DNA from: Dipteris shenzhenensis
Lineage: Eukaryota
Assembly (NCBI GenBank): GCA_047967505.1
Contig: CM106538.1
Direction: 5' to 3' (one strand)
Length of the DNA stretch: 64,000 nucleotides
This document shows, in pieces, positions 3,645 through 64,000 of this stretch. Position 1 is the first letter of the stretch. Each line of letters begins with the position of its first letter. A model generated the notes under the pieces. It saw only the letters and a list, made by a program, of their open reading frames with translations, was not told the origin of the DNA and ran no database searches. Made by a program: the position numbers and the translations under genes.

Positions 3645-6600
3645 TCGTCGGGCTCCCACCCGTACCCCCTAGGGGGACGGGGCCTATGAGACTCAGGTTT
3701 CCGAAACCCTAGATTGCACCATTTGGAACTGTAATGGTACCTTATGGTCAGACCTAGTGAACTTCTCGGAGTCTTATACAGGACGAGACATAGTCTTTTA
3801 CACGGAGACACACCAGAGCCCAGAGCGTCCACTACCGATAGTCAGTGACTACACATGGGAGTCAGCCTTCAGGGATGAGACGAGGGATACAGGAGGAGTT
3901 CGAGGATGAGGCGAGGTCGCAGTATTGTATAGGTCTTCCCTCGCTGGAGCCATCTCCATTGAGAGGAAGGACGCACACTCCCGATTTATGTGGATCCGGA
4001 TCCGACGCACAAACACCCGTGACCTTTTCATAGCAATATGCTACTTCCCACTTTGCCAAAGTGGCACGAGAGGAGGGTGAGACATCGCCATATGCACCCT
4101 TACATCAGGATATCCTAGACATTTCAGCCCACGGGGAAGTTCTCCTTGTTGGGGACTTTAACGCCAGGACAAGCACGTGCCAGGCACCACTCTTGGACTT
4201 CCGAGACGACTCTATCATGCTACCAGACATGGACCTAGACGGAGCAGGTATGACCATGACCTCATCGGACCGACACGGGCCTGTTACACCATATGGACAC
4301 GCGCTCCTTGATCTGGGCAGGAGGATGCATGATCTCATCATCTACAATGGGCTTGACCTATGGCCCTCCTCAGGTGGCTTTACTTGCTTCCCACACGGGG
4401 GGGGGCACTAGTGTAGTAGATTACATCATGGGATCCCCTACCTTCACTTCATGTATCACCAACTTCACCGTAGCATCACTCCCTCTAGGAGCTGATCACA
4501 CATACCTATTCTTCACTATTGCCACCCCACGCTTAGCCACACCACACACACCATAGGAAGCACGACACCTACCACTACATACACTTTGATCACAGCCTCT
4601 CACTGGCCTACTCTGGACGCCTAAACAGACTCCTAACCTACATTGATCACATACCACTCATAGAGGACCGTGCTGCCCTGATTAGTCGCACACTCCACGA
4701 GGCTGTCCTCCAAATCTTTCCCCACACCACACGGTCCACTAGACCACCACCTCTTGGTTCTGTACCTTGCAACAATTGGTACGATGCGGAGTGCAAGGCT
4801 TATCGCCGACAGCTCCGACTTGAAACCAAATGTCACGTCTCGAACACACCAGAGACGGTACACAAGTACCGACGTCTCGTACGTCGGAAGAAGCAGGAAT
4901 TTCTTCGTCGAAATGAGGAGCTGTTGCACATCTTGTACAGCAACAACTCTAAGGATTTTTGGCAGAGATTCCTTGAGCGTAGGTCTCCATCACCCCTCAG
5001 CGACACGAGAGTCTAGCACACATATGCACACCATCTTTATGATGTTCCACACCAGCCTACTCCAGATCTCATACACACACTTCGTCCCACCACTTGCTCG
5101 TTGCTCACCAGAGGGGGAGTTAAGGACGCAACATTGAAACTGCACAATGGCCGAGCTAAGGATCACGAGGGGCTATGCACTGAGTTTATCGCATATGGGA
5201 TCGACATGTTAGCCCTGATTCTAGCAAAGCTATTCAATGACACTGTTTGCCTTGGCTTCCTCCGCACGTGGATACTCAACACCATCACCCCCATCCACAA
5301 GGCAGGGGATCCCATGGACCCGAGTAACTACAGGACTATCATGATTGGACATGTGATGTCCAAGATCTATACAGCTGTATTGGATGCGTCGGTCAGCCTG
5401 TTCGCAGGGATGAGAGGGCTCAGAGCAGAGGGTCAGGCCGGTTTAATGCGAGACCATGGGACTATGGATCACATACTCACACTCAGGAGTGTCATTGAGG
5501 AGGCCAAATCACGGAAGGAGAGGGTATATTGCTGCTTTGTGGATTTCCGCAAAGCCTTTGACACAGTACCTCGAGCTCGTCTCATCACACACCTACAGAC
5601 ACTAGGATTTGATCAGGAGATCATCTGGGCAGTCATGGCGCTATATGAGAGTGTCTCAGGTCGAGTTCGTACATGCGCAGGTTGGACCGATGAGATCTTG
5701 AGTACCATAGGAGTCAAATAGGGTTGTCCCTTATCACCGACCCTGTTTGGCCTCTACATCGATGAGCTTGAGACTTTCATGGGGGCTTTCAGAGGGACCG
5801 GTTGCTCACTTGTGGGGATCATCATCAGGATTCTTCTTTATGCAGATGACGTGGCACTCTTGTCGCCTACACCCGAGGGGCTCCAGTGACACCTGGATGC
5901 ACTGCAGGCTTTTTGTTTATCCCATGATTTGGAGGTCAACCTTGGCAAGACCAAGGTCATGATCTTTAACACCTCTCGAGCAAACATGCAACGGAAGCAG
6001 TTTACTTTTACTTTCGGTGGGTCACCAGTTGAGATCGTATCCTCATACACTTACTTAGGGGTCATCTTCTTCGGCCCGATCTTCACGATCAGACTAGCGA
6101 TGCAGGCCAGACTGAGGAGGGGATACGCCTCACTAGCTCGGCTAGATAGACAATGCTTCCACTCCCTTTTCCAGGACCCTCGAACCAAGGCTCTTCTCTT
6201 CGACTCCTTGGTCCGACCAGCCGGTATGTATGGCCGCCCTTGTTGGGGGCTTGACATGTTAGAGATAGAGTGGACACGCGTGGAGCGCCTGCAAATCCTC
6301 ATGCTCACACGGATGATCGGGGGGAAACCGTCTATACCACATCACATCATTCAGGCCGAGTTTGGTGCTTCTCCACTCCATCTAGATGCAGCCTTTCAGA
6401 CCATTATATATCTACACCGGGTTAGATCATATGGGGACTGCGCATTAGGGAGACAGAGGTTGCCATGGTTGGCTCTCGATTCCTCCATGAGGTTGGCAGC
6501 AGAGGGAGACGAGCGATGCTGGTATGCACGGACTCACAGATGGTTTGTGAGACTAGGGTTCCACATCGATAGGATACCTCCTTTTCAGTATAGTTTAGAT

Positions 6601-7515
6601 TACTGTCTTCATATTTCGGAGGAGGTTTTCATCACACCACCGGGGTACACTGAGCTTCATATGCCTCACTCACTACGGATCTCCATCGGACAGTTTCGGG
6701 TATCATCACACCGCCTCCGCATAGAGAGCAGCACAGCAGAGGGGATTCCTAGGGAGCATCTCTTATGCATATTGTGCGACTGTCGAGAGGTCAAGTCGGA
6801 GGAGCATTTTATTTTCAGGTGCCCAGTGTACTACGAGCTCCGAGGTCGCTACCACTGCTTCTTCAGAGACAGCTCTGGGCTCCTTCCCAGATTCCTCGCC
6901 TACCCAGATCAGAGATGCCTCACGGCCTTCATTCATGAGGGGGTCTGACACAGAGAGTACTTACTTAGGCGACGGGGCTTGGCCACATCATCAGACACCT
7001 CTCAGAGCAGGATCATAGAGTTCTTCCCATCGAGTGACATTGATCGTCCAGTCTCTAGCTGCAGACGTGACAGAGACCCCGACCCGACGACCGTAGCACG
7101 ACACACGAGACATCAAGGGGACACACAAATCACTCTGGGGGACCTCCCGTCATTGTTTAGACTCGGGATACGTCCCACGGGAGTCACGGTGGCTTTGGTC
7201 TTGCGTTGAGGCTCGTCTAGGAGACCAAGACGTACAACACCCCTTGACGGGCACCAGCGTCCCATCATTGGCTATGCACCAGCTAGGGCGACATGACATA
7301 TGGAGGATTCCGCTCCGCTCCAGGTCCTTTTCTTTTCATTGTTACATCCAGATGTATTTGATTTGATTATGTATGATTAGACTTAGGATTCAGCATGGGT
7401 GATGATGCTCGTTTCAGTAGCTCCATCCTTATTGTGATTTGTATCAGGTTTTCTTTCAGTCTCATAGACCCATCGGTCTTCCAAAGACTCTAATAAAATT
7501 TCTCTCTTTCTTTCT
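3645..7515 (+). mobile_element. RTEX-like LINE with near-complete decayed ORF2 (APE endonuclease, RT, CCHC, C-terminal extension)
   Basis: EN motifs IWNCNG, GDFNART, SVVDY. RT motifs NYRTI, FVDFRKAFDTV, GVK*GCPLSPTLF, LLYADD, YTYLG. C-terminal FRVSSHRLRIE...CX2CX9HX4C. 3' hairpin, AATAAA and TTTC tail. LINE identity is secure; the RTEX clade assignment is inferred. Confidence 0.88.
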
Positions 7516-8011
7516 AGTTAATCGAGGTCAACTTTCTTTGATTGAAGTAAATCTCAAAGATTTCTCTTTATTTCTTGGGAGAAGCTACAAACTTGTGACA
7601 ACTATTGGTAAGGAAACCGCTTGAGTGACCGAGGCGAGACTTGTCGTACGCGTTAGGGTTGCAGAGAGAATCACTTGATGGTTAAACAAAGTATGCTGAT
7701 AGTCTCTTGCAAACATTTAGAATGTTGGATTGCTTGAATAGCAAGCTAAGTAAGAATGACGCTATTGGAAAGTTCAATGGTGGTCTCTTATACAAATTTG
7801 ATGGGCAGCCTTATCTTTAATGTTAACCAGCTCGGACAATTCCTATTGTACAAATTGTCTAGCTAGTTTATGCACAGCCTGATGCTCACACAATCAAATG
7901 TAGCTAATGCAGTTTCTTTTGCATTATGCTAGAGTGCCTTTGGGATTCATAGGTTCACAGATTAATAGGAGATATAGATGCCCATGCGTGGCCAATCTTC
8001 ATCATTTGGCA

Positions 8012-8198
8012 TGGCATGCGTTTCATGGGTTAGTAAGAGACACTCATGGATCTCTCTTTCATCCAAAGAAGCTGAATATAAAGCTGCATATGGAGCCACT
8101 ATGGAATGCATGTGGTTAAGGACATTAATGTAGAAGGTTTGGATGGCATTCGTTTCATGGCTTAGTAAGAGACACTTATGGATCTCTTTTTCATCCAA
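8012..8198. repeat. Local direct duplication (about 55 bp unit, about 130 bp period)
   Basis: TGGCAT.CGTTTCATGG.TTAGTAAGAGACACT.ATGGATCTCT..TTCATCCAA occurs at about 8012 and 8143. Confidence 0.75.
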
Positions 8199-8746
8199 CC
8201 GGAGAGCAAGCTCAAATGCGGGACTACATCATGCTATGCATGAGGGGGGGGGGGGAAACAGCTCAAAAGCAACTAATAAAAAACCAAGGCGGAGGCTGAA
8301 AATGCCATCTCAACCTTAAGGGAGACTCAGAGAAGAAAGGAGATCCTCTCCAAACTCTGAGAAAAGCAAGTCTCTTGGCAGTGGCTGCTCTGGAGGATCC
8401 CTGCATGCTCGACCAGATGGGCATCAGAGTCTGTACTGTGCCGGTCCAAATACTACCCATAGCCTGGTAAGGGTGAACCTGGGTACCCTCCATCGATTGT
8501 GTACACCTGGCTCTCCAAATATGCCAAGCTGTAATGCTAGCTAGAATCTCCCATGATGTGTCTACTGAGGCATGAGCAGCTCTGAAAGGAGTGAAGGGAA
8601 CATCCTAGAGGGAACAAGACTCCACTGAGTGTCACGCTGGATTTGGATCATGTCCCTCGAAGAACACTTGAGGACCATTAAGAGATACTAGGTCATATAG
8701 AAAGGTGCTGTATGAAAGATAATGTAAATCCTAGCAACACCTTTTT

Positions 8747-8782
<36 letters not shown>

Positions 8783-8975
8783 AGAGGTAGGGAAGGGGGA
8801 GGTGAGAGGGAGGTAAGTAGGTAGAGGGGGAGAGGAGGTGGGGAGGGAGAGGTTGAGAGGGGGAGGCGGGGAATGGAGGCGGTGGAGGGGCTCTGAGGGC
8901 TGAGAGAGTGAGGGAAGGGCTGAGGGGGAGGGGCTGAAGGGAGAGGGCAGCTAGAGGGGGAGGAGCAGCAGCTGC
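8198..8975 (-). mobile_element. L1 3' fragment joined to a (TC)n / CT-rich leader
   Basis: 8198-8745 parallels 48375-48940 (LRWHFQP.PWF end of ORF2 and the 3'UTR). 8748-8975 is a purine-rich tract on the + strand. Confidence 0.8.
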
Positions 8976-10855
8976 TTCATTTGGTATGGGTTTCTATGTC
9001 CACATGGGATGAATTCGTGCACTTATGTACTCTTGAGACATTGCCTTGAGTACTTGAGCCCTACCATTGAGAGGAAAAATGAAGGGCACGATGCATGGTA
9101 ATGTGGTTAGTGAACTATGTTTTGGCCATTCAAAGCAATTTGAAGCCTTTTGGGAACACTTCATACGTTACTTGTAAAAAATCCCTAAAAACTTACTTAA
9201 TACCACTGCAACTCCTTTCGCCTAGCGTTCCACGACTCCTTTGATGCCTCACCTGTCTGAGCCCCTCTTGAGTCTCTGCCCTCTCTCTAACTCCCTACCT
9301 TGTCTTAGCCCTCTCTTAGCGCCCCTTGCCCTCCTAGCCCTCTCTCAACCCCTTGCTCTCTCTCAATTCTCCTTAACCCTCTGTTAGCCTTTTATGGATT
9401 GTGTGGAGGCAATGGACCAAAAAAACGAAGCAAGAGAGCCAAAAACGATCTGTAGGCTGTTATTGCAGCAGCACTTAAGTGCAAGTGAAAGTAGAACTGA
9501 AGTGATGGGACGTCACTTTGAGACTAACCCTAAAACCCTAGGCCGATCAACCCATTGGGCAAGATTAAGTTATAAGGGTTGACTTCATCCAATGAACTAA
9601 TGGTGCTAGTGTGCTAGCACATTAACTAACACTAGCTTACAAGGCCATACCAGGGGCTAACCTATCACCCTTGCCCTTTCTCAGCCTTATCTCATTCTCT
9701 TACAGCCCCCTCTTTATTCTCACATCCCTCCCACTCAGCCCTGTCTCATTTCCTTTTCCTCCTCTTTCTTAATCTTCTATCTCCCAAACCCTTATAGGCT
9801 CCTCTATCCTCTCAAACCCCATCTTAGGCTTATAAGTTCGTAGCCCACTTTCTCTATTTCAGTCTATGGTCCACTTGTTTCAAAATTCACCATGCCCAGA
9901 CCACCATGACTTTTTATGGTGGCATGTGGATATTTTAGGCCATCTATGTGTTTCCTATACTTCTCTACATGGAAATTGGAATGTCAGTATTTTCCCTCCC
10001 CCCTCCCCCTCCCCCATTTTTAAAGGGACAAAGAAAATGTAACCAATCTAATGCACATATTAAAATACAAAAAATGAAGTTGTTTCGAAGCTTACACCTA
10101 AGCGCCTCAAATGCTGTGCATCTAAAGACTTGTGCAACCATAGCCCATTCATCGTGAAACATACTCTTGTGTCTTGCATCTCCACTCTCTTGCTCCTCTA
10201 GTGCACTTTTAAATCTGACGTTTTCATTGTACATATTGTCAATGAATATGTTTCTCAGCTCATACCACTCAGCTTAATATATAATGGCTAGCCTGCAATC
10301 TTTGCTAGCTTGATAATGACACTTCTGTGCCCTTTGTAAGACCTTGTGCCGTTGAGGTCTTTATCTCTTATAGGTCCATCCACTTCTTGACCCTAGTTCA
10401 TTTTGATCTCGGGGTAACCTTGTTAAAGTCTTCGAAAAACTTAGGACTTGCCATATGACAAGTACCCCACCAAATCACGAGTTGATTTATAGATCATACA
10501 CCTAGTATGATAAAAAAACGTTTCCAAGTCATTTTGTTACTCAAGGGTGTCTACATGTGTGCGTACAATGCTTGTATCACACTTACTCCAAGAATATTTC
10601 TACATCTCTAAACTTGTGAGCATTTCTAAACGTTTTGCATTATTCTTTATATCATTCGTTTTTTTTTTTGGGGGGGGGGTTCAAAAGGAGCAACAAATGA
10701 CCTTCGAGTTGATAGAATAAACCATCTATCTATTTATTCTTTTTGGCTGCTTCTGCATACACTTACACGAATTCATGACCACTCAAAAATAATTGAATGA
10801 GTAAAGGTTTTTGGGCACAACTTTGTGGTTGATGTTGACTCTATTTGCGCTGTTT

Positions 10856-10917
10856 GTTATTGAGCATTATTTGTGATCTGATTAGAGTTATTGAGCATTA
10901 TTTGTGATCTAATTAGA
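10856..10917. repeat. 31-bp tandem duplication upstream of the exon
   Basis: GTTATTGAGCATTATTTGTGATCT(G/A)ATTAGA twice. Confidence 0.9.
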
Positions 10918-11013
10918 GTGTCCATGTCCTTTTGAGATTATCTTGGAAGATCTTTTATGGGGGGAGATGTGCTGCTAATTATGGGCTCTTTTGTTGTGTT
11001 GATGTTGTCCTAG

Positions 11014-11093
11014 GTTTTGGTGGAGCCTAATTTCAGAGGTGGACTGGTGGGATTCAATTGGTTGTACTCAAAGTGCAGTTGAAGATGGCCTTG
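11014..11093 (+). CDS. MED16: MED16 exon (80 nt, absent from the ORF track)
   Basis: Acceptor CCTAG. Reads (R)FWWSLISEVDWWDSIGCTQSAVEDGL, the MED16 FWWSL..VDWWD..GCTQSA.EDG motif. Donor GTGAGC. Phase 2 to 1. Confidence 0.93.
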
Positions 11094-13099
11094 GTGAGCT
11101 ATTTTAAGTCAACGTATTATTTCTTATTTTACCAAGTTGTGATCCCTACCATATGCTGAGATTAGCACCTTCACTACTGCACAAATAGCTTAACGTTTCC
11201 TTTCCAAAGGTATACATGAATGTATTTTTGTGCATGCAAATGTTTGCAGGCTCTGATTGTGGAGGTTCTTTAAGTTCTAGAGTCTTTGTTGTATTCCTCT
11301 GCCTTGCACTTTAGCGGAAGTGTGCATACAAGGAATGTTTGTTGAATTTGGTTTTTGCAATGATAACTTTACCCTGGCTTGGCATAAGCTGCTGTGAAGA
11401 TGTTTTCCCCAAATAAACTCAAAAAGTGTTGTTGTATAGTCCATAAAGTTGTTGAAGAGTTATCATGGACATGAAAGTGCCTTGTACATTTGAAATAAGG
11501 TCGCTGAATGGAGATAACTTATGTGTGTATATCACATGGTTAAACAACGTCCAATTCAGCCTCAAATAAAATAAAACAATGGAAAGTAGCATTTGTTGGA
11601 GCTATAATATAACTTAGATAAACTAAGAAAGAAGAGACTCCGTGGGTCTTTAGAAACCCAGTATAGCTGCTTATGCTTGGCAGCACTGATGACGACATAA
11701 GTGTTGCTTTGCTTGCTAAGTATGTCTTCCTTTTGTTTTTCATAAAATCTTTTGTTTACCTCTTTTTTCTTCTCTTTCATTTTCTCTTTTATTTTTTGTG
11801 TAGATTTTTGATCTTTAGAATCTAAATTTGTATGATTGGACTTATTCTACTCTTCCAAAGGTATATATAAGAAAGATGAGACAACTCAATAAAGTTGCGG
11901 ATGCTATTTGCAGTCGTGTGACAGGTAACATGCTAAAATGTTAGTTGACATGGCAAGCATGGTGTGACTCAACCATAGGTTGAGTTAGTAGGTGTGTGCG
12001 CTCTTAACGGTAGTTAATGGTCGAGTTAGGGTTTTATCTTGTTGACACCCTTTTCACACTCACTCCATTTTGAATTTGATGAGTTTTTCATCCAGCTACT
12101 TGCATTCTTGCTCGCATGCCTCCGTTCACTTTCAGCTCTGTTTGTCCATCTGATTCAGGATGATAAGATAACTCATGTTGAGCTTAGTGTCCAATTTCTT
12201 GAACACTAGACGCTTTTGGGATCCAGGTCACTAATGATCTCAACTGGTAACCCACTACCCACACGGCATCTTGCCCATGGCTGCATGGCAATCCAACAAT
12301 AAAGGCCATGGAGATACTTTCCCATTTCATATCTAGGATGTCAAATGGATGCAGCTAGCCACCTTTTCTCAACTATTTTGCCTTTTTGACTTGGCTTTGC
12401 TTCCATTCTTGGCCCTAACATTCTATATCAGTCCGCATGTGCGGCCAATAAAAATCTTGCTTGACTAAAGCCAACATCCGTTGAATACGAGGGTGTCCCA
12501 CACAAGGGGTGTTACGACATTCAAAAATGACTTTCTTCCTCATATCCTTGACATCTAACAAGCATACTAGCTTTTCGGAATAAGACATCATTCCGCATAG
12601 AATACTTATCTTAGATTTCTTTCCGCTCAGGCCATCTTGTCATTCAGCCACGTAGATCCGATGCATTATATAAGTAACCTAGTGATGTGCTGTCAACACA
12701 CTGCAATCTTGAAGCAATAAAGATAATGCCTCTATTTCTTTAAAGCATGCGCAAGGGCATAAAGCTCTTTCTCATGTGTAGGATACGTGACCTATACCAA
12801 AATCAGCTTTTGGCTTACAAAAGCTACAAGTCTTAGCTCCTTAAACAGTGCTGCTCCAATGGCACGATCACAAGCATCTATCTCAACCCCAAATGGCTTG
12901 CTCGGATCTACAAATAAGCAACATTGGCACAATGGTTACTGCAGATCCTCAAAGCATGGATCTAGATCATTTTTCCAGACCGTGGTCTCGTAATTAAACT
13001 TTCTTTTTTTTTAAATCTTTCAAAAAATAAGACTGGTACCATGATGACAACATGATGATAAACTTTCCAGATACGAACAAAAAATGGCATTCATCATTT

Positions 13100-13960
13100 G
13101 TTGGAAATTAGCAGGTATATTAGTGGGCTCAAAGGACAGCACCAAGAACTCATAATGGTTGTATCGTGTACAGAAACTTGTCTTAGCGACATCTTCCTCC
13201 CTAATGGGCCAAATTGAGGTATCGGTATGAGAGGGTGCACCACAAAATTATAATTGGTGTTGTGACGAAGGCAAGAGGGTCCCATAATGCACTCGACTAT
13301 ATTGTGACCAATTGAATGAGGGTAGCATGTTTCACTTTTTAAACCTGGCCATCTGTGTAGTTTGTTATAGAGGAGTAGGTCGTGATTGGTGCACATATCT
13401 AGCAGATGTCTCCTATACTTTGTGATGGGAATTTATGATGTGTGTCCTTTGATCTATGGTTGAATTGACGAGTTGTAGGTTGGATAGTTCTAAAACATCA
13501 ATGCATCTCTGATTCGGGCAATGAAGTCCCCCATGAATAGTACCTCCCCTAGTTGTCTATAGCTCTGGATGTTGTCATAAAGTACCAAGAAAGGTGAGAC
13601 TTGCCCTCTACCTAAGTTTATCCCGGCATAGTTATATGTGTGTCAGCATGCTACAACCTATACGTATGTGATTTGGTGTCTCATAAATTGGATCCATATA
13701 TATCGGTCATGTTTATCCATACTAGTTGACTATGATCTGTGTCTGTAAGTGGTATCAAAATAGAATTGCCACTCCTCGTGAGCCTTCCACACATCCATCT
13801 ATGCGAGCCTTTGACCTGAAAGTGGAGTGCAATGTATACCCTTGTACTATGGGTAATACTCTCTTTAGTCTTTCGTGTGTCTTAGTGATAATTATGAGAT
13901 CTTATCCCGAAAAGATTCATGGAGCAGCCCTATTATTACCATTTTACCTTGTTCTTTGTA
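13100..13960 (-). mobile_element. Old LINE endonuclease remnant
   Basis: Minus strand reads GEVLFMGDFIARI at about 13510-13550; the surrounding sequence has weak resemblance to the EN at 3.7-4.5 kb. Confidence 0.55.
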
Positions 13961-14359
13961 TAGCATAAATGTGACGGGCTGACCGCATTGAATCCAACAA
14001 TCTTCTCCTGTGAGACCGTACTGAATGTAACCTCTCTTCTATTCGTCTCACCATCTTCTGTATCCACTCAACCAAGAACTTAAGGATCTATTCTTGAGCA
14101 AGGGAAAAATAGCTTAATCAAATAATCCATGCATTATCCCAGACCATGACACAATTGATGGATCTTAACCAATGTGCCCCAAGGAAGAAAATCATTTAAA
14201 AAGCAAGAAGTAGGGGTAAATTAGCAAAGCCATCCTTTTCCCATCTATTTAAAATTGAGAGTTGACCATCTATGCATCACTCACAGTGTCCCATAACCAA
14301 GATTCAGTCTATCATCTAATGGCGGAGGACCTGTTGACTAGACTTGGCCGAGGACATGA

Positions 14360-15052
14360 CCGGTACCACAACATGACCGGACCTACTGTGGTACGGGACG
14401 GGACCAGGACCTCCTTTTGTGTGGGATTGGAGCACGACCTCATATGGTATAAGATTGGACCAAGTTACCTGTGGTACATGACAGAGAAGCGATGTGGACA
14501 TATCTAGCCCACCGCCAGCAATCATCTCGCCGTCCAGTCCCAAGGAGAGCACAACAGCCACAGCGCCGTCTAGCCCCAGGGAGAGGACAACATCCACCAA
14601 TACATCCAGGCCAAAGAGGTCCTCCTCCAGTGAAGAGGTATAGGTTTAAACCAGGCACCGTGGTACTTCAAGAGATACGGAAGCACCAAAAGTCTGTGGA
14701 GCTCCTCATCCCAAAGGCAAGCTTTGCAAGGGTAGTGCGCGAGGTCATATAGGACCTCAACCAAAGCGCAATGTCTAGGTGGTACAGGAGAGGGATAGTA
14801 AAGGCCCCTCGGCATATTTTGGTAGATGCCCGTCAAGGAGTCACTGCCGATGTAGAAGCCAAATTATCATAAGAGATATCGTGGGTGAGCGGTATCCTGG
14901 AGAGGGAGGACCATCCACCAATGGGGAGGGAGAAGTATCATAGCAGTCAATGGAGGGACTGCCAGAGATGAGAGACGGGAGGTATCATTGTGGTGATGCC
15001 TAATGGAATGTGGAGTGCTCTGAATGCAAGAGGATTTGTGACTAATATGTAA
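14360..15052 (+). pseudogene. Intronless, decayed CENH3-like / histone H3-fold ORF
   Basis: 14633-14782 reads [49 protein letters not shown]. It is preceded by an R/Q/P-rich tail. TATTTAAA at 14246, TAA at 15050-15052, AATAAA at 15075. In-frame stops are present. Confidence 0.75.
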
Positions 15053-15387
15053 TCCCTTTCAGTGTCTTCCAAGTAATAAAGAAATACCGAAGGCCAATCT
15101 GTGTCCTTGGTCTTGATCAAAAGCAATCTAGCTCCCAATTTGTATTTGAAATATTTGTTGAGTTTTATTAATGTGAAAGCATTGGGTGGTTAATTGTCTT
15201 TTCTTTACTACCCTCTTGTTGGCCTTGAGGCTAGTGTCACTCCATCTGTTCTTCTTGTAAGCTGTCGTGCCCTTCGAGGAGTATCTGGCTACTGTAGGCT
15301 GCCTCAGGCTGTTGGGCACTTTGTGGGGAGGCCTAAGGTGGCCCCTGAGTAAACGGCACTGTGGTCCAACTAATAGTGCCTTGAATA

Positions 15388-18300
15388 TGTTAGAATTATT
15401 ATTATATTCTAGCAGTGACCAATGCAATGTAATAAGTAGGTTAGGGACACTTTTCCCTCTTTAGAGGTTTTTTCCCTTGACCCCAGTTAGTTCACTAACT
15501 ACAGTTAGTGAAGGATAAGGTTTTGTCACCTAGACAAAACCTTTCCCTTGCTTTTGTATTACTTCATCTATTGCAACTTACGTTCAACACTCTCTTGCTC
15601 TCTCTCTTTTCCTTCATTTGGTATCAGAGCAGAGTCTGCTTGACCTTCTTCCTGCTCAACAGCCCCTTGCCTCCAGCTCTCATCCGTACAGCCCGTCCGT
15701 ACAATCTGTACGGATTGATTCCGTACAGCCGTATAGCAGCCCATGCTTCAGTTGTCAAGCTCAGGAAGCTCCTACTCCCGTACAGCCATGCATTCCATAC
15801 CTTGTCCGTATAGGTGCTGTGCATCGCCCGTACAGTTCGTCGTACAGTTGCGCCTTTAGTCCGTACTGCCGTACAGCTGCGCCAACAGAGTCGTGGCAGC
15901 CGTACAGCCGGCATTTCGTACATATGCTCCAGGACCGTACTGCGTTCCGTCGTACGAATCAGCGTCGTATTCCGTACATGCAGCTGGCCGTACAGTACCT
16001 GCACTAGCCCATACATATGCGCCTTCGTACATCCGTCGTACTGTTCCGTACATCTATTGTCAGCGCACGGTACAGGTATCCATACACTATACAGATTCCG
16101 TACACACTCTTGCATTCAGCACATTTGCAGGAGTCCGTACTTCCTTTGGTGCATTTACAGGTTTTCTGAGCAGGTATCTTTGTTTGCAGAGAAATTGGGA
16201 CCTCTGGATGATTTGCAGGCACATTGCAAGTTTGGGGCTTTTGTTCATTTTTTGGCACACATTGCAAGCAAATTGCAAAGATTGGCTAAGAAATTGGGGC
16301 TTTTGCACGAGATACTATTTGGGTGAAATTTGGCTCAATTTCAGCTCAAAATTTGGGGCTTTTAGTTTTGCACTACAATTTCTTGCGTCTTTGGGGCTTT
16401 TAGGCAATTTGCCCTCTTGTGGATGCAATTTCCCTGAAGAAATTGGGGCTTTTGGCATTCGGATGCAATTTGGCAGTGTAAAAGCATTTTGAGGGTTTTG
16501 CAGGCAGTTTTGGAGAGCATTTGCAGGATAGTTGAAGTGCACTTTGAGCCTTTGACAGGCTGTGACAATATTTGTCACTGTGGGCAGATTTGTCTTTGCA
16601 GATTTTACTTGTGCATTTTATATCCCAGGAAGGGATTTCACTTGATCAGTCTGCTGTTTTTTTTTGAGATTATGTGGTGAATATGGCTCAGAACAACTCC
16701 AATGAAGTGTTCGGGGTTCTCACATAGGAAGATAAGTTGGATGGCACCAACTACTCCTTGTGGAGTTTCATGGTTCGCAATATCTTGGTTGGCAGATATC
16801 TTTGGGATTATGTCAATGGAGATGAAGCAAGACTAGATACAACAACTACACCTGTCACTCCTACAGCTAGAGGCAGGGGTAGAGGAACAAATGCAGCACA
16901 AGTAGTTGGAGCAGCCGTTCCAGGAGCTCCCACAGTAGAGCAGAAAAGATGGGACTTTAGAGATGCACAAGCTCTTTCAGTAATTTCTCTTTCTGTCTAT
17001 ACCTCATATTCGGTCATGCAAGACATCTATGGCAGCTTGGGAGATACTAGAAAGTATGTTTGCAGCAAGAAATGATGCCAAGGTTTCCTTTCTGAAGCGA
17101 GAACTTTCCCATACGCATATGGAGGAGGAAAATTCCATGAATTCTCACCTCACAAGGCTTCAGGACCTTAGGGAACAATTGCTGAATATTGATGAAGTCA
17201 TTCCGGATTCAGAGATGATCACGACCACTCTGAACTCTCTTCTTGAGTCCTATCTCGGTTTCCACACCTCGCCGAATTTGTCATTGAGGGGGGGCAGCAA
17301 TCCTCTCTCCTTTCATGAGTTGGTAGGACTTCTGTTGCAGGAGGAACAAACTCGCAGAAATATGGCAACCCGGGCTGGCGAGCATGCTATGCTCTCCAAG
17401 TTCAAGTCCAAGGGTAAAGGGCAGTAAAAGCCACATGCCAATTAGCCCACACATCAGCATAAAGCTGATTTTGGACAGCCTTCTTATAAGGCAAAGGGTG
17501 ACACAAATAAGCAGAAAAAGAAGGGCATCTGTCATTATTGCAAGAAGCCAGGTCATTATATTGGAGAGTGCAAGAGGCACATAGCCAAAGAGAAGAAAAT
17601 GGATTCCGGTATGGCTGTGTCAAATGCATCAGTTCCACATTCTCATGATGGAGGAGATGTTGCAGCCAACTTTGTTGAAGAGCACTGTGCCTTTCTGTCT
17701 TACACTTCAGATTTTTCAGTGGGTAGTTCTGATATTATAGGCACTAATAATGATGACCCGTATGCTTTCTTGACTTGCAGTTATGATCCTTAAAAGGATG
17801 CATGCTCTTTTAGCGTTGATGAGACACTTCATACTTGGTATTTTGACAGTGGTGCTTCAAAGCACATCACTTCCAGAGTCTGTTTGTATCTTTGCATTCT
17901 CCACCCACAAAAAAGAAGGCAACTTGTGCGAATAATTCTTCTTATTTAGTGTGTGGAGTGGGAGACATTATTCAAAAATTGATGCCTTTCTAACCAGCAA
18001 GGGGCTGCACAATAGTCCAACTGAGAGCACCCTCTACATCAAGAAGGATGGGGGGGATATTTTGGTCATCATTCTTTATGTAGATGACATGCTGCTTACC
18101 GGATCAAATGAGGAAGTAATTGCAGATTTCAAAGTCCAATTGAAAGCTACATTTGATATGTCAAAGACTTGGGCTTGTTACATTTCTTTTTGGGGATCCA
18201 GTTTATTCAAGAGAAACATGGCATTGTTATGTCTCAGTCCAAGTATGTTCAAGAGCTCTTGGACAGATTCAACATGCATGATTGCAAGCCTATGTCTACT

Positions 18301-19120
18301 CCCATGGAGCCGGGGTTGAAGCTTACAATGCATGATGCAGGTGAATCAATTGATGTCACACTCTATAGCCAGGCTGTCGGATGCCTCATTTATCTCTGCA
18401 ATACACGACCTGATATTAAGTTTTCAGTTTCTCAGGTGAGTAGGTATATGCACAGCCCAAAGATTATGCATTGGCAGGCTGAAAAACGCATCGTCCGTTA
18501 CTTGCAAGGTACAAAGTCTTTTGGCTTGATGTTTCCTAGGGGGGGTGACTTGCAAATGCATGCTTACAGTGACTCAGATTGGGATGGAGACTATGATACT
18601 AGGCAGTCCACCAGTGGGAATTGTTTCTTTCTAGGACATGCTTGCATTTCTTGGTTGAGCAAGAAACAATCTACAGTGGTCGGAGGGTCCTTCTTCGATT
18701 CTCACTGATAGTCAGAGTGCTATAGCAGTGGCAAAGAATCTTGTGTTTCATGCTCGCACGAAGCACATTGAGGTTCACTATCACTATGTCAAAGAGAAGT
18801 TGCATGCAGGAGAGATCAGTATGATCTCTGTGTCAACACATGACAATGTATCATTTCCTTGAACATGACATTGGCACTGCAGGGGGGTGTTAGAATTATT
18901 ATTATATTCTAGCAGCGACCAATGCAATGTAATAAGTAGGTTAGGGGCACTTTTCCCTCTTTAGAGTTTTTTCCCCTTGACCCCAGTTAGTTCACTAACT
19001 AGGGTTAGTGAAGGATAAGGTTTTGTCACTTAGACAAAACCTTTCCCCTGCTTTTGTTTTATTTACTTCATCTATTGCAACTTACGTTCAACACTCTCTT
19101 GCTCTCTCTCTTTTCCTTCA
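15388..19120 (+). mobile_element. Ty1/Copia LTR retrotransposon, internally deleted (no integrase)
   Basis: LTRs 15388-15616 and 18888-19120 (TG..CA, about 96% identical by eye). TSD GAATA on both sides. PBS TGGTATCAGAGC at 15619, PPT GCAGGGGGG. gag LDGTNYSLW, CCHC CHYCKKPGHYIGEC, protease WYFDSGAS fused at about 17968 to RT YSKIDAFL...LYVDDML, RNase H AYSDSDW. Confidence 0.96.
15683..16140 (+). promoter_or_regulatory. Dense CGTAC(A) motif array in the Copia leader (putative SBP/SPL sites)
   Basis: About 20 CGTAC copies in about 460 bp, plus CATAC/CGTAT decay variants. The function is inferred. Confidence 0.5.
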
Positions 19121-19641
19121 GAATAGGCTGCTATTTCAGGAACTTAACGAAGGCAAGGGGCTAGGAGGAGAAGGGGCTGATTCGTGTTTTTTTTTTTCCC
19201 CGGGGGGGGGGGGGATGGAGTAAGGGGCGACTGAGGAAGTCTAAAGAGTCCCATAAGACTAAAACCCCGCATTGGGGAAGTAGAGGTGTCTAGCACCCCC
19301 CAAGGGGTCTAATGGAAACTAAACTGAAAAACACTTATATAGAATGTCTGCTGGTCTTGAAGGAATCGTGTCAATGATGCTAAATGAGGAAATGTGACTG
19401 TCCCACCATCTGCCATACGGAAATGAGCTCTTTGTGGGCCCAATTGGGGTCCCATTGGGAGTCTTGGTGTTGTATTGTTGGCATCGAATGCCATCATGAA
19501 CTCGCTTCGCACAGTGATGCTGCTATGAAGGTGCTGTGATGGGACGCGAGTTTGTAGGCTCTGTGCAAGTCTCTAGCAGGTTTGGAGCCTTTTGAGAATA
19601 TAGGACTAGCTTTGTCCTTTCTATGCACTGCTGTAAGCGCA

Positions 19642-22600
19642 TGTGATCCTGTCTACAATGGTAGAGGCCCTGTTCGTCCTCGTAATCTTTGACCAAAAAA
19701 TGAGTTGTAGCCTGAAAATGGTGTCATCTCATCAAGCGTGGAGCTTTGAGTCGAGAATAATTCGGGGGGTGTGTGCAAAATAAAGACGCAGCTCTTCGTG
19801 TTTGTTTCTCGGGAGAACTGACCTTGACAACAACCCTTGGTCTGGCAAGAAGGGCTCACATGGCAGCACCTTCAAACCCCACTTTGGTTAAGATTAAGCT
19901 CTCTCCACAAGACAAGCAGCAGGTCAAGTTTGAAGTAGAGCCTTTGAAACCGGCCTCTAATCACTCAGAGGGTAGTGGAACTAAACCTTTAATCACTTCA
20001 GCACTTATTTACAGCTCACAAAGCATATATCACAACCATTAACCATTGCATGATCACCATTTGGCATTTACACATTTGTTCACAAACAAAACCACTGAAA
20101 AAGGGATGGAGGCTAGAATGCCCCTGCTCAACAAACATAGACAAGTGCACCCGATTGGCCCCAAACACCGTGGCGCCCCTTTCGGAATTTTTTTATATTT
20201 CACAGTGAAATGATTACAATTTGCATCTGGGAGACCTTCCGTGCAACTGAGCACGCAGCCCCAATTCACTAAGCCTTCGCAAGGCTTTCAAGCATAGAAC
20301 ACCATCAGATAAGTGCACTTAACCCATAGGCTCAACCCAAAGGCATTCTCTTTTCTGAGTGCAATTCCATTGGCTATCCAGATGCAATCACACTGCACCC
20401 CAGCTGCACTCTCTTTGAGTGGTTTCCAGATGGCATTCACAAAGCTTTTCAAAGCTCCAAAATAAAATCAGCAAAGTACCCAACCAAAGAATGACTCATG
20501 TAGCACTGCTTGGGCACCTGTGAGCCAAGAAAGAGGCGGCATGCGAAACCAACCAATAGCTTATGGCAAAAAGAAATTGCAGCAGCAAAATCACAACTCA
20601 CCAAGTCCTGAAAACTCGAACTAAGTCCTCAATCGCCAAGAGGACGTAGTAGCCAATGCCTAATTGCATTCTCAGCCAAAGAGGAGTGCAAAGGCATGAA
20701 GAAAGAGCATTTACAAGAGCCGACCAGCAAGAATTCCACTGAAAAATGTGAAAAGAAGCACTTCTGTCGTGAAGAAGTGGGAGTTCTTGGGCTCAAAAGA
20801 AGCGTGCTTCAGAGAGGAATGCATTGAGAAGGTTTTGGAGAAGTTTCATCGCCGAAAAGTCCTCCAAAACTGAGAAAAACCAGTCAACCAGCGGGTGGGA
20901 CCACTCGAAATTCAACAGAAAGCTGTAGCTTTGCAAGAGGAGAGGCCCAGGAGGCGGTAGAAGCAAAAAGGTCCAGAAGAAGCCACTTTTGCAAATTCGA
21001 CCAGCAAAAGAAGTGCTCAGCTCTGCCCGTTCTACCAAACGCACGGAGGGAAAAGCATATCACTACGAACGGGAGGCAGAGGGGAAGCCATCGGGCTAAA
21101 CGGAAGTTGAGGAATCCAAATGGGTGAGGAGTTATCAAGAAAAACGGAATTCAGTTGAAGGAGGCTGAAAAACCAGTCCAAAAATCTCAACAAAGGGAGA
21201 AGATGAGAGAGAAAACCACACATGTGAAGTTTAGAAGGCCCAGGAAGGTCCAAGAATGGCAAAGGAGCATGTAGAAGGCACTAGAGCCACCTGGAACTCT
21301 AGGGGGGGCCACTGAAGGTACATGGCCCTCTAGGGGCCCATTAAAAATGCCACATCATCATTTTCCAACAACCACTCTTTTAATTCCTTGGAATGCCTTT
21401 GGGCCTAGGGATTAATTACGCTTATGTGCTAGGCACCATGCTGCGTTTAATTACACATTATTAAGCCCACGCTTGGACTTTTAAAACCAAAGTTGTCACG
21501 GTCTTGTAGTACATTAAAGTACTTAGAATTTCACCCCCCCGTGACATACCCCTCTCTTGAAACAACAAAGCACAGTTTGCTGCTCCAAAACACAGGAGTG
21601 AGCATGAAATATAGCATGAAAGAGTATACAAGAAATCCGCAGCTTTAGTATACAGAGACAGTGAAAATATGGCTAGGAGAGACACGCATCCCTCCATATA
21701 CACTGCTCAAAATCTATGTGATCCTCGACGATCAATAGTCAAGATGCATCAATATCATGTAGTCTCACTGCAGAAATACTGTCAGCTCAGAATCTCGGAT
21801 GAAACACACGGTGTCATCAAGCGATCTCATGAAATCACGGTGAGCCCGTCTGTACGGAGGGAGTGGAGGTGCTACCCCCCTCTCGAACACCAGGTAATGC
21901 TCCAGACGCTCTGCTGAACTACCTGTAGGAGCCCAGACCGCAGTCGGCTCTAATTGGAAAGCATCAAGGTAAAGCTGCAATATCCTAGGTGAATCTGCCA
22001 GTTCACCTTCCTCCATCCATTTCGCATCAAGTGATGGGTAATTTTGAAACTTTACCAAGTAGCGACGGATAATTTTACCCTTGAGCTTTCTATCTCTGTG
22101 TGCCAAAATCGGCTCTGGGACCAGAAGTTCATCCAGTTCTTTCACAGTGAAATGATTACAAGTTGCATCTGGGAGACCTTCCTTGCAATTGAGCACGCAA
22201 CCCCAATTCACTAAGCCTTCGCAAGGCTTTCAAGCATAGAACACCATCACATAAGTGCACCTAACCCATAGGGTCAACCCAAAGGCATTCTCTTTTTCGA
22301 GTGCAATTCCATTGGCTGTCCAGATGCAATCACACTGCACCCCAGCTGCACTCTCTTTGAGTGGTTTCTAGATGGCATTCACAAAGCTTTTCAAAGCTCC
22401 AAAGTAAAATCAGCAAAGCACCCAACCAAAGAATGACTCATGTAGCACTGCTTGGGCACCTGTGAGCCAAGAAAGAGGCGGCACATGGAGCCAACCAATA
22501 GCTTATGGCAAAAAGAAATTGCAGCAGCAAAATCACAACTCACCAAGCCCTGAAAACTCGAACTAAGTCCTCAATCGCCAAGAGGACGTAGTAGCCAATG

Positions 22601-23582
22601 CCTAATTGCATTCTCAGCCAAAGAGTGTAAAGACATGAAGAAAGAGCATTTACAAGAGCCGACCAGCAAGAATTCCATTGAAAAATGTGAAAAGAAGCAC
22701 TTCTGTGGCGAAGAAGTGGGAGTTCTTGGGCTCAAAAGAAGCGTGCTTCAGAGAGGAATGCATTGAGAAGGTTTTGGAGAAGTTTCATCGCCGGAAAGTC
22801 CTCCAAAACTGAGAAAAACCAGTCAACCAGCGCGTGGGACCACGTGAAATTCAACAGAAAGCTGTAGCTTTGTAAGTGGAGAGGCCCAGGAGGCGGTAGA
22901 AGTAGAAAGGTCCATAAAAAGCCACTTTTGCAAATTCGACCAGCAAAAGAAGTGCTCAGCTCTGCCCGTTCTACCAAACGCATGGAGGGAAAAGCATATC
23001 ACTGCGAAGGGGAGGCAGAGGGGCTAAACGGAAGTCGAGGAATCCAGATGGGTGAGGAGTTATGAAGAAAAACGGAATTCAGCTGAAGGAGGCTGAAAAA
23101 CCAGTCCAAAATCTCAACAAAGGGAGAAGACGAGAGAGAAAACCACACGTGAAGTTTAGAAGGCCCAAGAAGGTCCAGGAATGGCAAAGGAGCATGTAGA
23201 AGGCACTAGAGCCACCTAGAACTCTAGGGGGGGCCACTGAAAGTACATGGCCCTCTAGGGGGCCCTTTAAAAATGCCACATCATCATTTTCCAACAACTA
23301 CTCTTTTAATTCCTTGGAATGCCTTTGGGCCTAGGGGTTAATTATTATGTGCTAGGCACCATGCCGCGTTTAATTACACATTATTAAGCCCACACTTGGA
23401 CTTTTAAAACCAAAGTTGTTACTATCAGCCTCAATCCTTTCTTTTTGGCTCTTGAGCTTTTCGTGCATTGGATTATGTATCCCATATGGAGCTTGCTCTA
23501 ACGGTTTTTCTTTAATACTTAATAGAAGTTGTCATGGTCTTGTTGTACATTAAAGTACTTGGAATTTCACGCCCCCGTGACA
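19642..23582 (-). mobile_element. Chromovirus-type Ty3/Gypsy deletion derivative: partial 5' LTR, chromodomain, PPT, long 3' LTR
   Basis: 20198-21546 is duplicated at 22140-23582, both ending GTGACA. Minus-strand PPT AAGAGAGGGGTA abuts 21546. Chromodomain ILAHRDRK..RYLVKFQNYPSLDAKWMEE at about 21950-22140. The left end is ambiguous (19535 or 19642) and there is no clean 5-bp TSD. Confidence 0.85.
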
Positions 23583-26500
23583 TGCTTTGCAGGACAGGGC
23601 CTTGGTGGGTCGCATTGTTGGGCTCACCTCGTCAAGGAAATAGGTCAGGGATTGGCTTCAGGCGAGCTTAGCCCTAGGGTCTGTTGACCCCATCCAAGAG
23701 GTCATTATCTATGGGAGAGGAGTCTTCCTCATGCAGCTGAACTCCCTCGACACCATGGCCTCCCTTGTCGAGCAGAGCCCTATCCTACTAGGCCCTCATG
23801 TCGTCTATCTCCTTCCTTGGTACCATGGCTTCATAGTCGAGGACATGGATTCGACTCATCACGTGCCACGATTCCTAGTGACGCTCCGCTTTTCGGGGCC
23901 TTCGAAGGAGAAGAGATCTATTCTTCCTTCCATAGGGAATTGTTTGGGGGGGGGGGTCGCATCCCAGATGCATTGATGCAGGAGGAGGTGCAGCAGGTCA
24001 TATCGGAGATTTGACAGCAGCCATTGGACACCCCGAAGGGTGGCTGGGCATCCTAGACAGCCGAGGCGATTCAGAGGAGCAGTGAGGAGCTCTGCACCTA
24101 GGCTGTCCGCCGTCGTTTTTCCCTTCAGGAGAGAGAGAGAGAGATTTGAGGCGTGACTTAGCCTCCATTGAGCGTCTCAGGGAACAGGACACGGAGTCCT
24201 AGTGGCTTGCTGACAGAGATGAGTGTGCACATCTGGAGCTTCAGGACACGGAGTTGAGGAGGGCTGAGTATTCTTACCATTCCGCTCGTGTCCGTTGGGT
24301 ACAGCACGGGGATAGGATGAGCCGCCAGTTCTTTCAGGCCACAGGGCCTAGGTCGGCAGGTGCCCAGTTGCAGAAACTGAGAGACGCTAGCGGCAGGATG
24401 GTTTCGGACCCTCATGAGATTATGGAGTAGGCTTCGGATTTCTATCCACAGCTGTTTCAGGCTGAGGAGTCCCGCCAGGTGTGAGAGGCCCATGAGGTGG
24501 TATGGGAGCATGTCCCAGCTGTGGTCTCTCAGGGTATGAGCAGCTAGTTGGATTCTCCCTTCACAGATGAAGAGCTTCGGGAAGCTCTCAGGGCACTTCC
24601 GACTCAGAAGTGCCCAGGGGAGGATGGGCTGTCCCTGGTCTTCTTCAGAAGCTTTTGGACCTTTGTGCACCTCTCTTCGGCTGGCCTTTCAAGAGATCTT
24701 TGACTCAAGAGCACTCCCACTGTCCCTAAGCAGAGGCTGGATTTGTTTGATCCCGAAGGGAGGGGACCACTCGGACCTTCGACAGTGGAGACCGATCACT
24801 CTGCTAGACAGTGCATACAAGATCTTAGCCAAGGTCTTGAGTTTGCGGCTACGACCCCATCTAGTCGACATCATCCACGACTTGCAGACAGGTTTTGTGC
24901 AGGAGCGTAGCATCCTTGACAACATCTTTACCTTTTGGGGGGCGTTGGATTGAGGCAGGGACGAGGCGCAACCCCTTGCGCTCCTACTAGTGGATTTTGA
25001 GAAGGCCTACAATCGGGTAGAGTGGTCCTTCTTGGAGGGCACGATACAGAAATTAGGCTTCTCAGAGAGGTGGATCAGAGGGGTCTCCGGCTTGTATGCA
25101 GGGAGCTCCAGTCAGATGTTGATTGGTGGGTTCACTGGGGAGGCCTTCCCGCTCACCCGCTCCATGAAACAGGCCTCCCACTGGCTCCCTTCCTCTTTTT
25201 CTTTGTCGTGGAGGTGTTGGGCTATTTCATGAGGTCGCAGACGGTTGGCCTCAAAGGGATGAGGCTACCGATCAGACAGGAGGAGGAGCTTTTGGACTTG
25301 GAGTTCGTAGATGATATGGCCTTGTATGTGGAGGGTTCAGAGGAGAGCGTGGATGCGGTTAGGGGGCTCTTGAGGTTTATTGCACCGCCTTAGGGGCAAG
25401 GATCAACTGGGGCAAATGAGTCGGTTTTCTTTGAGTGATGACTGAGGAGTCCTAGGAGATTCTTCGGTGGGGTGCATTGGTAGGCTTTAGGTGGATTCCG
25501 AGTGGCCAGTCGACGAGGTAGTACTTGGGATGTCGTGTGGGCATTGACATCTCCGCAGAGCAGTAGATAACCCCGGTCCTTGAGAGCGTGAGGCACAAGC
25601 TTCTTTATTAGAGCTCTGCCAAACTCTCTTTGGCAGGCTGGGTCTTGGTGGCGAACCAGGTCCTGTTGGCCACAGTCTGGTATACAGCCTCTTGCTGGTG
25701 TTTTCACAGGGATTGCATGGGACAGTTGAGACGCTTGGTGTGTAACTTCCTTTGGGCAGGATCAGATGGCACTCGCAACACCAAAGCTAGAGTTGCGTGG
25801 CAGACAGTGATACTATCACAGGCACAGGGAGGCTTGGGTATTATAGATCCAGAGATGCAGACAGAGCCCTGTTGGGCAAGTTGATAGTTAGGGGTCTCAC
25901 TCCAAGCATGGAGCCTTGGAAACTTCTCCTGCAGCGCGGTCTCTTGAGCAACACCCCCCGCACAGGTGGTCAGTGGCAGCCGTCCCACAGGTGGATCTTT
26001 TCGGAGGCCCCTCTCATGGGGAAGGGCTCACCCCCGATGAGGAGTCTCTTGAGGGTCTGGTTGCGGATCTCAACAGGTCTCATCCGAGTTAGCCCCTGGT
26101 ACGCGGAGGAGTTTGCACGCTAGTCGCTTATCTCGCACCCGGAGGTCAAAGACGAGGATAGTTTGATGCTAGGGCAGCGGCTACACATTGGCTGGGCACA
26201 GTGGGACAGCAGCCCTGCTTGCTCCCTGCTGCGGACATGGTCTAGACTCCTTGCAAAGGCAGAGACACGATTGGAGGTCCTTTCTCATCTGAGAGGGGCC
26301 GGCCAGAGGATGGTGGAGATAGAGGCAGCTATTCCGGACTCTTGGAGGGTGGGACTGCAGGTTTTCACTCCGGCACACTGGCTAGGACAGCTCTCTAGGA
26401 CGGGTGTACCTCTGAGGATTCAGCTATGCCCACAGCCGCCAGCTCCCACGAGCGTGCAGTTCTATGATGTGGGACTGGGCAAAATACTGCAGCCTTGGAT

Positions 26501-27432
26501 CACAGGGGATCAGGAGATGAACGGAGTATTAGGCCAAGTGGGTTGGCAGAGGGTCAGAGTAGTGGGACGTTTGGGCAAGGAGTGGTTGATGGACCCTTCT
26601 TGCATCACAGACCTAGATGTCCCCCGCTGGAGACTATGGTTATGGGAAGGATGCCCTCTCAGCGAGATACAGTGGGAGCCCGGAGAGTGGTTATGGTCAG
26701 TCAGAGTTGGTCTCTCAGAGAGTACAGTCGGAGCTATGGAGACTATTCCTCACTGCTTATGGAGCTGCCTAGTAGCTCAGAGGATCTGGCTCGGAGCGCT
26801 TTGGATTGTGGCACAGCTTCAGAGCATGCAGAGAGATTTCACGTGGGGTATGGCAACTTGGCTTACAGAGGGGGGGCACGGTCTCGCCAGCTTACTGGAT
26901 ACAGGGTCGGAGCATTCATAGCATTGAACTTCACTTGGCTACTCCCCCCCCCCCCCCCTTCTCACCATCCCCCTCAGTGGGGAGAGAGGATAGTGTCTGG
27001 GAGACGGTGGCCAGCATCAGTGCTTGGAACATCTAGGTGGCCCGTTGCAGTTGGGTTATGGGCCAGCACCATGTTCCTCTGACGGCTATGCTGGTTGCCA
27101 TTTGGCAGGATATCATTTATTCGTTGTGGTCCATTTGGGAGCGCGGCGTTCCAGGTTCTCGAGCTACCGACGATAGCCGGGCACGTTTCTGCAAGGCTTG
27201 GCCTGCAGGTGTATTTTATGAGCTCATGCCGCGAGGGATTCGCTGGCTGTATAGTCCACCACAGTGGTTGTTAGCCCCTGTTACAGAGAATCCCTAGGCA
27301 ATGAGCTGGGATCTCTAGCAACATCAGCCCGTTTTTGTTTTTGGCCACGATTGGCACCTTTCCGGTTTTGCTAATTTGTATGGTCGGATTTTAAGCATTA
27401 ATAGAAGTTCCTTTTCTCTGTAAAAAATATAA
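23583..27432 (+). mobile_element. L1 LINE, decayed and with internal deletions; its 5' part probably lies left of the Gypsy insertion
   Basis: ORF1 DUF4283-like ALVGRIVG..VRDWL..GRGVFLMQ..LLPW. RT motifs WRPITLLDSAYKILAK, QTGFVQERSILDN, DFEKAYNRVEW, PLAPFLF, EFVDD; GGLGI; ETIPHCLWSC. A-rich tail at about 27422. Confidence 0.9.
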
Positions 27433-28125: not shown

Positions 28126-28208
28126 TTACATTCCAGAAGGTGATTGCAGTATTGGATGCAGATTTTCATTCATTGCCATCACTTGTACATCGACAGCATT
28201 ATGGTCCT
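28126..28208 (+). CDS. MED16: MED16 exon (83 nt)
   Basis: Acceptor CATCAG. Reads (V)TFQKVIAVLDADFHSLPSLVHRQHYGP. Donor GTATGT. Phase 1 to 0. Confidence 0.93.
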
Positions 28209-28380
28209 GTATGTGGATGCAATCTTCACTTGAAATGCTTGTGTTCCTAATGTTTGTGAAGTTTTGTGTGGAACAAAATAACAATCAGAAAAGAGCTCCT
28301 TTCATTCTTCCTTTGAAATAGGTTGGAACTTTTGAGAATGCGCTGGAGACATAGGTATTCCTTGAGAAGGGTTCTAGGTA

Positions 28381-63973: not shown

Positions 63974-64000
63974 GTAACTCCGATGCTCAAAGAATCGCCT

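Follow-up and report, generated by a model that had tools for sequence, protein, structure and literature searches.

A half histone H3 fold in a MED16 intron of Dipteris shenzhenensis, a likely truncated copy of a CENH3-like variant gene

The DNA analyzed here is a 64-kb (64,000-nucleotide) stretch of contig CM106538.1 from Dipteris shenzhenensis (assembly GCA_047967505.1), referred to below as the window. Among the transposable elements (TEs) in an intron of its MED16 gene lies a short piece of sequence that reads as part of a histone H3. The original prediction described this piece as an intronless gene for a CENH3-like histone fold and raised two possibilities, a retrocopy or the cargo of a mobile element. 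The locus therefore raises the question of what kind of H3 the piece was copied from, how much of the fold it contains, and by which route it reached the intron. The results presented here suggest that it is likely a dead, truncated copy of a CENH3-like variant H3 gene, and it is called the relic in the following.

The host gene was recognized from ORF 559-1176, which encodes MED16. The best named relatives of this ORF are from ferns, namely, Adiantum (51% and 50%) and Ceratopteris (48%), with angiosperm proteins at 45% or below, and three transcript-size proteins reach 60 to 67% to the MED16 of the window. Six plus-strand exons, located by tblastn of P0266, P0267, and P0270, occupy positions 2-160, 571-1173, 11012-11092, 28125-28211, 57003-57251, and 63787-63978. 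They correspond to residues ~396 to 836 of a relative of 1,198 amino acids and extend across the 64 kb, and the large introns between them (~10, 17, 29, and 6.5 kb) are filled with TEs. The relic is on the same strand as MED16, in the 17-kb intron at 11093-28124 between exons 11012-11092 and 28125-28211. The predicted location in a MED16 intron was thus correct, and the number given to it, intron 3, applies to the introns as visible in the window.

Several elements surround the relic in this intron. A gypsy integrase fragment is located on the minus strand at 12415-12639 (Integrase_H2C2, 1.2e-11). The left neighbor of the relic is a LINE endonuclease-domain fragment at 13304-13913, also on the minus strand, which was identified by tblastx to the LINE endonuclease regions at 3775-4408 and 34294-34587 and whose 5' end faces the relic. 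Two LINE copies elsewhere in the window, at 3648-6956 (plus strand) and 32758-35023 (minus strand), are ~70% identical, and each contains endonuclease and reverse transcriptase (RT) frames. The right neighbor is an internally deleted copia-type LTR element on the plus strand at 15388-19120 (Retrotran_gag_2, 1e-19; RVT_2, 2.3e-9). It has 233-bp LTRs that are 94.4% identical, TG..CA ends, and a 5-bp target duplication, GAATA, and it holds gag and the end of RT, with no complete pol. Farther downstream, a 1.3-kb direct repeat or LTR pair was found at 20198-21499 and 22140-23422 (94.4% identical, separated by only 640 bp). Between these repeats lies a minus-strand chromodomain ORF (21765-22229), which runs into the second copy, and the region 20198-23422 probably represents a chromovirus (gypsy) element with extensive deletions. 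Long low-complexity frames rich in proline, serine, and leucine are present at 35960-37098 (minus), 40384-41413 (minus), and 62899-63717 (plus), with several frames and both strands open, and at 40445-41413 one such frame continues from a gypsy RT-like stretch. These frames look like simple-repeat expansions inside TEs.

The relic occupies a single plus-strand frame at 14453-14872, in which an R/Q/P-rich tail leads into the alphaN, alpha1, and loop 1 segments of the H3 fold. The peptide quoted in the original prediction was found in this frame, within an ORF at 14453-14752 that has 99 open codons up to a TAG at 14750-14752, and its match to the H3 fold is far beyond chance. For comparison with Pfam and the PDB, the translation was read through with X at the stops. 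The Pfam Histone profile (PF00125) matched residues 38 to 109 with an E value of 6.2e-11 and 43.1 bits (cut-off, 26.4), covering profile positions 20 to 74 of 122, and PDB chains of H3 and of H3/CENP-A chimeras matched in the range of ~1e-11 to 1e-10 (best, 1.3e-11). The first word-index protein search with the relic fragment gave one match in 21 candidates, P0002, which is also the best single-fold row (68% identity over the matched stretch); in the reverse direction, tblastn of P0002 against the window hit the relic at 2e-16, with 62.5% over 56 amino acids. Pfam, the fold HMM, tblastn, and BLASTP place the homologous core, comprising alphaN, alpha1, and loop 1 with SRW as its last residues, at 14630-14782 on the plus strand, and this block is free of internal frameshifts.

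The frame had been described as extending beyond the fold on both sides and as being interrupted by stops, and this is the case: in-frame stops are located at 14450 (upstream), 14750 (TAG), 14870 (TAA), 14969, and 15050. The TAG at 14750-14752 falls within the fold and separates alpha1 from loop 1, at a site where relatives have E, D, or Q. Directly after it comes DLNQSAMSRW, the frame past the stop reading DLNQSAMSRWYRRGIV... Members of the H3 family have an uninterrupted frame; that of the relic is broken by this TAG inside the homologous block and by three later stops. The two motifs said to frame the gene, TATTTAAA at 14246-14253 and AATAAA at 15075-15080, are both present, but as short A/T motifs they carry no statistical weight.

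The relic contains the first half of the fold only. A full-fold HMM, built from 82 aligned folds, matched 14633-14797 (E = 1e-20) at HMM positions 3 to 57 of 103, which falls short of the complete alpha1-L1-alpha2-L2-alpha3 arrangement. The reported traces of alpha2 and alpha3 could not be recovered. When the region downstream of the relic was searched, after removal of the later copia insertion, with an HMM for alpha2-L2-alpha3, the C-terminal half, there was no match at E <= 1000. In six frames of the whole 64-kb window, neither helix was found with this HMM, whose best match had an i-E of 0.19. That match, at 38861-38917, lies 24 kb from the relic in a stop-filled frame and was dismissed as chance. 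No second half of the fold was detected in the window by tblastn of 14 full-length relatives either. Histone homology stops at SRW (14782), and no histone homology was detected in the downstream plus-strand stretch at 14783-15080, which contains the last three of the stops listed above and ends with the AATAAA.

P0002 and its relatives P0019/P0152, P0027, P0030, P0034, and P0094 form a small, unnamed family of H3 variants. The sole named member, P0034, is a hypothetical protein of Adiantum nelumboides (MCO5577324.1); the others come from transcript-size contigs of 0.9 to 4.4 kb and form clusters of one or two sequences. The signatures of this family are a proline run, then [KR]Y[KR]FKPGT, and then IPKA[SP]F.R, followed by a complete, divergent H3 fold whose details include IPKAPF, RVTL, and a loop 1 one residue longer than that of H3. 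Three long members have an E/R-rich tail of ~230 residues with shared motifs, F.(N/D)L..I ... RTP near the N terminus and KF(K/R)..PWER.PPPP just before the fold. Pfam detected histone-fold-type domains only in all five relatives compared and no TE domain, the exception being a chance-level SufBD_N match (E = 0.044) in P0027.

The relic carries the signatures of this fern family as KRYRFKPGT and IPKASFAR. Of the 151 rows collected, 11 have Y[KR]F[KR]P[GR]T and 14 have IPKA[SP]F, and family rows are present in both sets. The family and the relic share 62 to 73% identity over 40 to 56 residues (29/40 for P0094 by BLASTP) and have the signature after the proline run in common. A family HMM matched the window at 14552-14767 with an E value of 4.9e-24, but only at profile positions 234 to 301 of 362. 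Whereas the family has a complete fold and its full-length members have the long E/R tail with its N-terminal motif, the relic has neither, and tblastn with full-length members revealed no long N-terminal domain upstream of it. The end of loop 1 also differs, being TR[IV]Q or similar in the family and SRW in the relic. Judged by eye, PGQRGPPP of the relic may be a remnant of PWER.PPPP.

Additional searches were made with P0002 and with the family alignment. The word-index search with the alignment was dominated by fused canonical-H3 gene models and yielded no new member among the 120 matches listed, P0019, P0002, P0030, and P0027 being the query's own. In the ESM Atlas, the best scores with P0002 were 0.78, which is under the counting level. 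A metagenome scan with P0002 produced 295 pattern matches, none of them related, and the scan with the family alignment produced 80 loci with 42 to 62% identity that all looked like canonical H3 and were set aside.

FAR, RW, and LLIP, named in the original prediction as changes diagnostic of centromeric H3, are all present in the relic. Two named plant CENH3s, P0106 (XP_057515900.1, Amaranthus tricolor) and P0050 (Luzula elegans CENH3 variant 2), resemble the relic in having FKPGT, LL[IV]P, and F[AT]R, in a loop 1 that exceeds that of H3 in length, and in RW at the border of loop 1 and alpha2. SRW is found in P0106, and it is located at the end of loop 1 in 5 plant-CENH3-type rows of the 151, including this named Amaranthus CENH3. 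The alignment bore out a loop 1 longer by two residues than that of canonical H3, which is a feature of CENH3/CENP-A: counted on the alignment after REV through the position of the canonical Q, the loop 1 of the relic has 13 residues, that of canonical H3 has 11, and those of P0106 and P0050 have 12. In contrast, the CENH3/CENP-A targeting domain, which consists of loop 1 and alpha2, is incomplete; plant CENH3 has alpha2, the main part of this domain, and alpha2 is absent from the window. Unlike P0002, P0106 and P0050 each have the residue of the relic at only two of the six alpha1-region positions at which it departs from canonical H3 (author's count). On these sequence comparisons, placing the relic in a CENH3-like variant lineage is reasonable but unproven, and membership in CENH3 itself is a candidate reading.

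These six departures occur in a run of 16 residues in the alpha1 region. At all six positions where the relic differs from canonical H3 (ELLIRKLPFQRLVREI), it has the residue of P0002, to which it is identical over the whole run. Six P0002 residues out of six are not what a randomly decaying canonical H3 would yield, and the parent is therefore taken to be a variant resembling P0002. Over the aligned block, identity was 31/51 to P0002 versus 25/51 to canonical H3, and the sub-profile scores of the block were 81.5 bits for the fern family, 77.9 bits for the plant CENH3 group, and 74.5 bits for canonical H3. Together with FKPGT, LLIP, and SRW, which are found in named plant CENH3s, the six residues agree with the predicted identity of the relic as an H3 variant with CENH3-type residues, not a canonical H3.

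Rows for the trees were drawn from an exhaustive search with HMMER, in which 1.84 billion representatives were compared and 5,249 matches were obtained at E <= 0.001. The best 17 rows of this search were uninformative gene models in which multiple canonical H3 copies are joined; 25 of the 151 rows, each with at least two folds, were removed before the trees were built. No supported position was obtained for the relic in the 83-row tree, and its nearest rows by path length included canonical H3. That tree separated the fern family with a support of 92 and the plant CENH3 group with a support of 91, each as one side of a branch. In a second tree of 27 author-chosen rows, which were also used for the AU tests, the relic and the fern family formed one side of a branch with a support of 75. 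Holding the relic with plant CENH3 gave an lnL higher by 10.1 and a p-AU of 0.82, and holding it with canonical H3 gave a p-AU of 0.42. The AU tests thus rejected none of the CENH3, fern-family, and canonical-H3 positions. The tree comparison proposed in the original prediction gave no choice between these groups. What speaks against canonical H3 is the shared derived residues and the 7-bit difference in profile score.

The putative N-terminal tail (14492-14629, plus strand) starts at the in-frame ATG 14492. It is R/Q/P-rich and, as had been noted, Lys-poor, with one K among 48 residues. A 36-nt tandem duplication at 14528-14597 (plus strand; 1.9 copies, 85% matches) has produced two 12-residue repeats in it. 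Such repeat growth is typical of the fast-evolving tails of variants. Homology to the H3 tail, hinted at by the PDB alignment, was rejected on the basis of the shuffle control for the local alignment, which was not significant (z = 2.0; 16 of 300 shuffles equal). A tail unrelated to that of H3 is another feature of CENH3/CENP-A. Compared with 18 other tails, the tail of the relic had no clear match except to P0023 (z = 3.4; 4 of 300 shuffles).

An imperfect 17-nt direct repeat on the plus strand (14/17 identical) has its left copy at 14471-14487, just before ATG 14492, and its right copy at 14779-14795, exactly at the end of the histone homology. The 17-nt pattern had two matches in the window versus 0.10 expected, a biased control because the pattern was derived from these copies. 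The repeat may be a microhomology or junction trace of the copying event, or it may be due to chance. The 64-kb window has three exact TGTGGTAC sites, all of them in a 115-bp span (14363-14477) upstream of the relic, and the repeat copy at 14779-14795 is a 17-mer related to them; the count of sites alone is unremarkable, as 12 of 100 shuffles reached three matches.

The parent gene of the relic probably belonged to the CENH3-like lineage of P0002, P0019, P0027, P0030, P0034, and P0094, and of this gene only the tail, alphaN, alpha1, and loop 1 have survived or were ever copied. One route would be an RNA-derived copy, made by template switching or from cDNA that served as filler, followed by loss of the 3' part. 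The relic is contiguous over ~80 codons from the tail to loop 1. Angiosperm CENH3 genes consist of ~7 short exons. The length of the contiguous stretch compared with such multi-exon plant genes favors an RNA-derived copy, for which we consider the chances about even. A duplicate made at the DNA level from a single large exon is possible but is a weaker candidate. P0094 ends inside loop 1, and the Adiantum P0034 model begins just before the PWE-PPPP motif; these ends would fit such a single-exon duplicate equally well. Capture by a TE, as by Pack-MULE, CACTA, Helitron, or LTR elements, is doubtful, and an origin of some other kind is equally doubtful. The 99 open codons exceed the expectation for a very old relic, which may point to a young copy or to a recently acquired stop.

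Comparison with known pseudogenes bears on these routes. LINE-made processed pseudogenes, short ones included, are defined by a poly(A) tract together with target-site duplications, and they keep the 3' end (PMC2831318). They resemble the relic in that both are short, apparently intron-free, disabled, mRNA-like parts, and the relic adjoins LINE debris. The relic differs in that its 5' part was kept and its 3' part was lost, in the missing poly(A), and in having only the doubtful 14/17 direct repeat as a candidate target-site duplication. No A-run was found after the AATAAA at 15075-15080 through position 15387. The classic LINE route therefore fits badly. The cowpea CENH3 gene has 7 exons, and two partial pseudogenes have been described in this species, CENH3.3-pseudo and CENH3.4-pseudo, which comprise exons 2 to 4 and 5 to 7 of the known parent (PMC7738545). 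Like the relic, these contain part of the coding region only and are located near or inside other genes. Whereas the cowpea pseudogenes are exons of a known parent that is CENH3, the relic runs contiguously from tail to loop 1, and its CENH3 identity is not proven.

The second possibility raised at the outset, that the relic is TE cargo from a multi-copy family whose CENH3-fragment ORF encodes a centromere-targeting or chaperone-decoy protein, is improbable. The relic does sit in a TE nest, it is bracketed by the 17-nt direct repeat, and but for one TAG it would form a 126-codon ORF from ATG 14492 to TAA 14870. However, comparison of 13914-15387 with the rest of the 64-kb window gave no match and no second copy of the relic, and no TIR, LTR, or Helitron-type ends were found around it. 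Inverted repeats of at least 30 nt were not detected in 8000-22000 (best short pair, 21 nt, 76%), the nearby LTR pairs belong to other elements and none encloses the relic, and each adjoining TE is an element in its own right, with ends of its own. A Helitron end at the CTAG at ~15131, which is preceded by a weak A/T palindrome and followed by C instead of T, was considered and rejected by eye. None of the three ORFs overlapping the relic gave a Pfam family, TE or other, and no TE domain was present in the five relatives mentioned above. A high-copy TE protein would also give large clusters, whereas those of the relatives hold one or two sequences each, and the missing alpha2 leaves no CENP-A targeting domain. 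Half of the fold is missing and a stop breaks the rest, and nothing in the window supports the proposed mimic or decoy.

Even less probable is the reading of the relic as an exon of a functional H3-variant gene that lies inside the MED16 intron, with its remaining exons beyond the window or overlooked and the TAG due to an assembly error or a polymorphism. The MED16 introns of 10 to 29 kb make distant exons conceivable, the frame is open for 99 codons before the TAG, and GT dinucleotides occur at the end of the homology (AGGTGGTAC). This reading is opposed by the absence of alpha2 and alpha3 from any frame of the 49 kb downstream, by the position of the stop inside a conserved block, by the weakness of both candidate donor sites as judged by eye, and by the absence of the N-terminal domain of the fern family. 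We attach slightly less probability still to the idea that an undescribed fern-lineage H3 variant, possibly the fern centromeric H3, with a CENH3-like fold and a long E/R tail that bears a conserved N-terminal motif, has given rise to many dispersed RNA-derived copies, the relic among them, and that some of these copies would express a tail-plus-half-fold peptide that competes for the chaperone of the variant. The least probable reading, a decayed canonical H3.1 or H3.3 pseudogene whose random changes happen to resemble CENH3, has in its favor the p-AU value for the canonical clade and the path lengths in the 83-row tree, but it is contradicted by the six P0002 residues, by the match of FKPGT and SRW to variant rows, by the lower identity and profile score for canonical H3, and by the lack of frameshifts in the block, some of which would be expected after decay that deep.

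The relic, then, looks like an ordinary truncated gene-fragment pseudogene and not like a new mobile system. Gene-fragment pseudogenes are common in TE-rich introns. Pairing with H4 involves the alpha2-loop2-alpha3 half of the fold, and because this half is missing, the relic is predicted to have no H4 pairing and no targeting domain. It most likely does nothing and would be unable to make a histone. Partial CENH3 pseudogenes are already on record, and the fragment itself is of little weight. For annotation it serves as a warning, since half a histone fold with a 99-codon open frame could be called a gene. Beyond this, the relic points to an unnamed H3-variant family in ferns. This family is a candidate for the fern CENH3, or else for a variant not yet described; in the former case, a conserved tail of this length would be atypical of centromeric histones.
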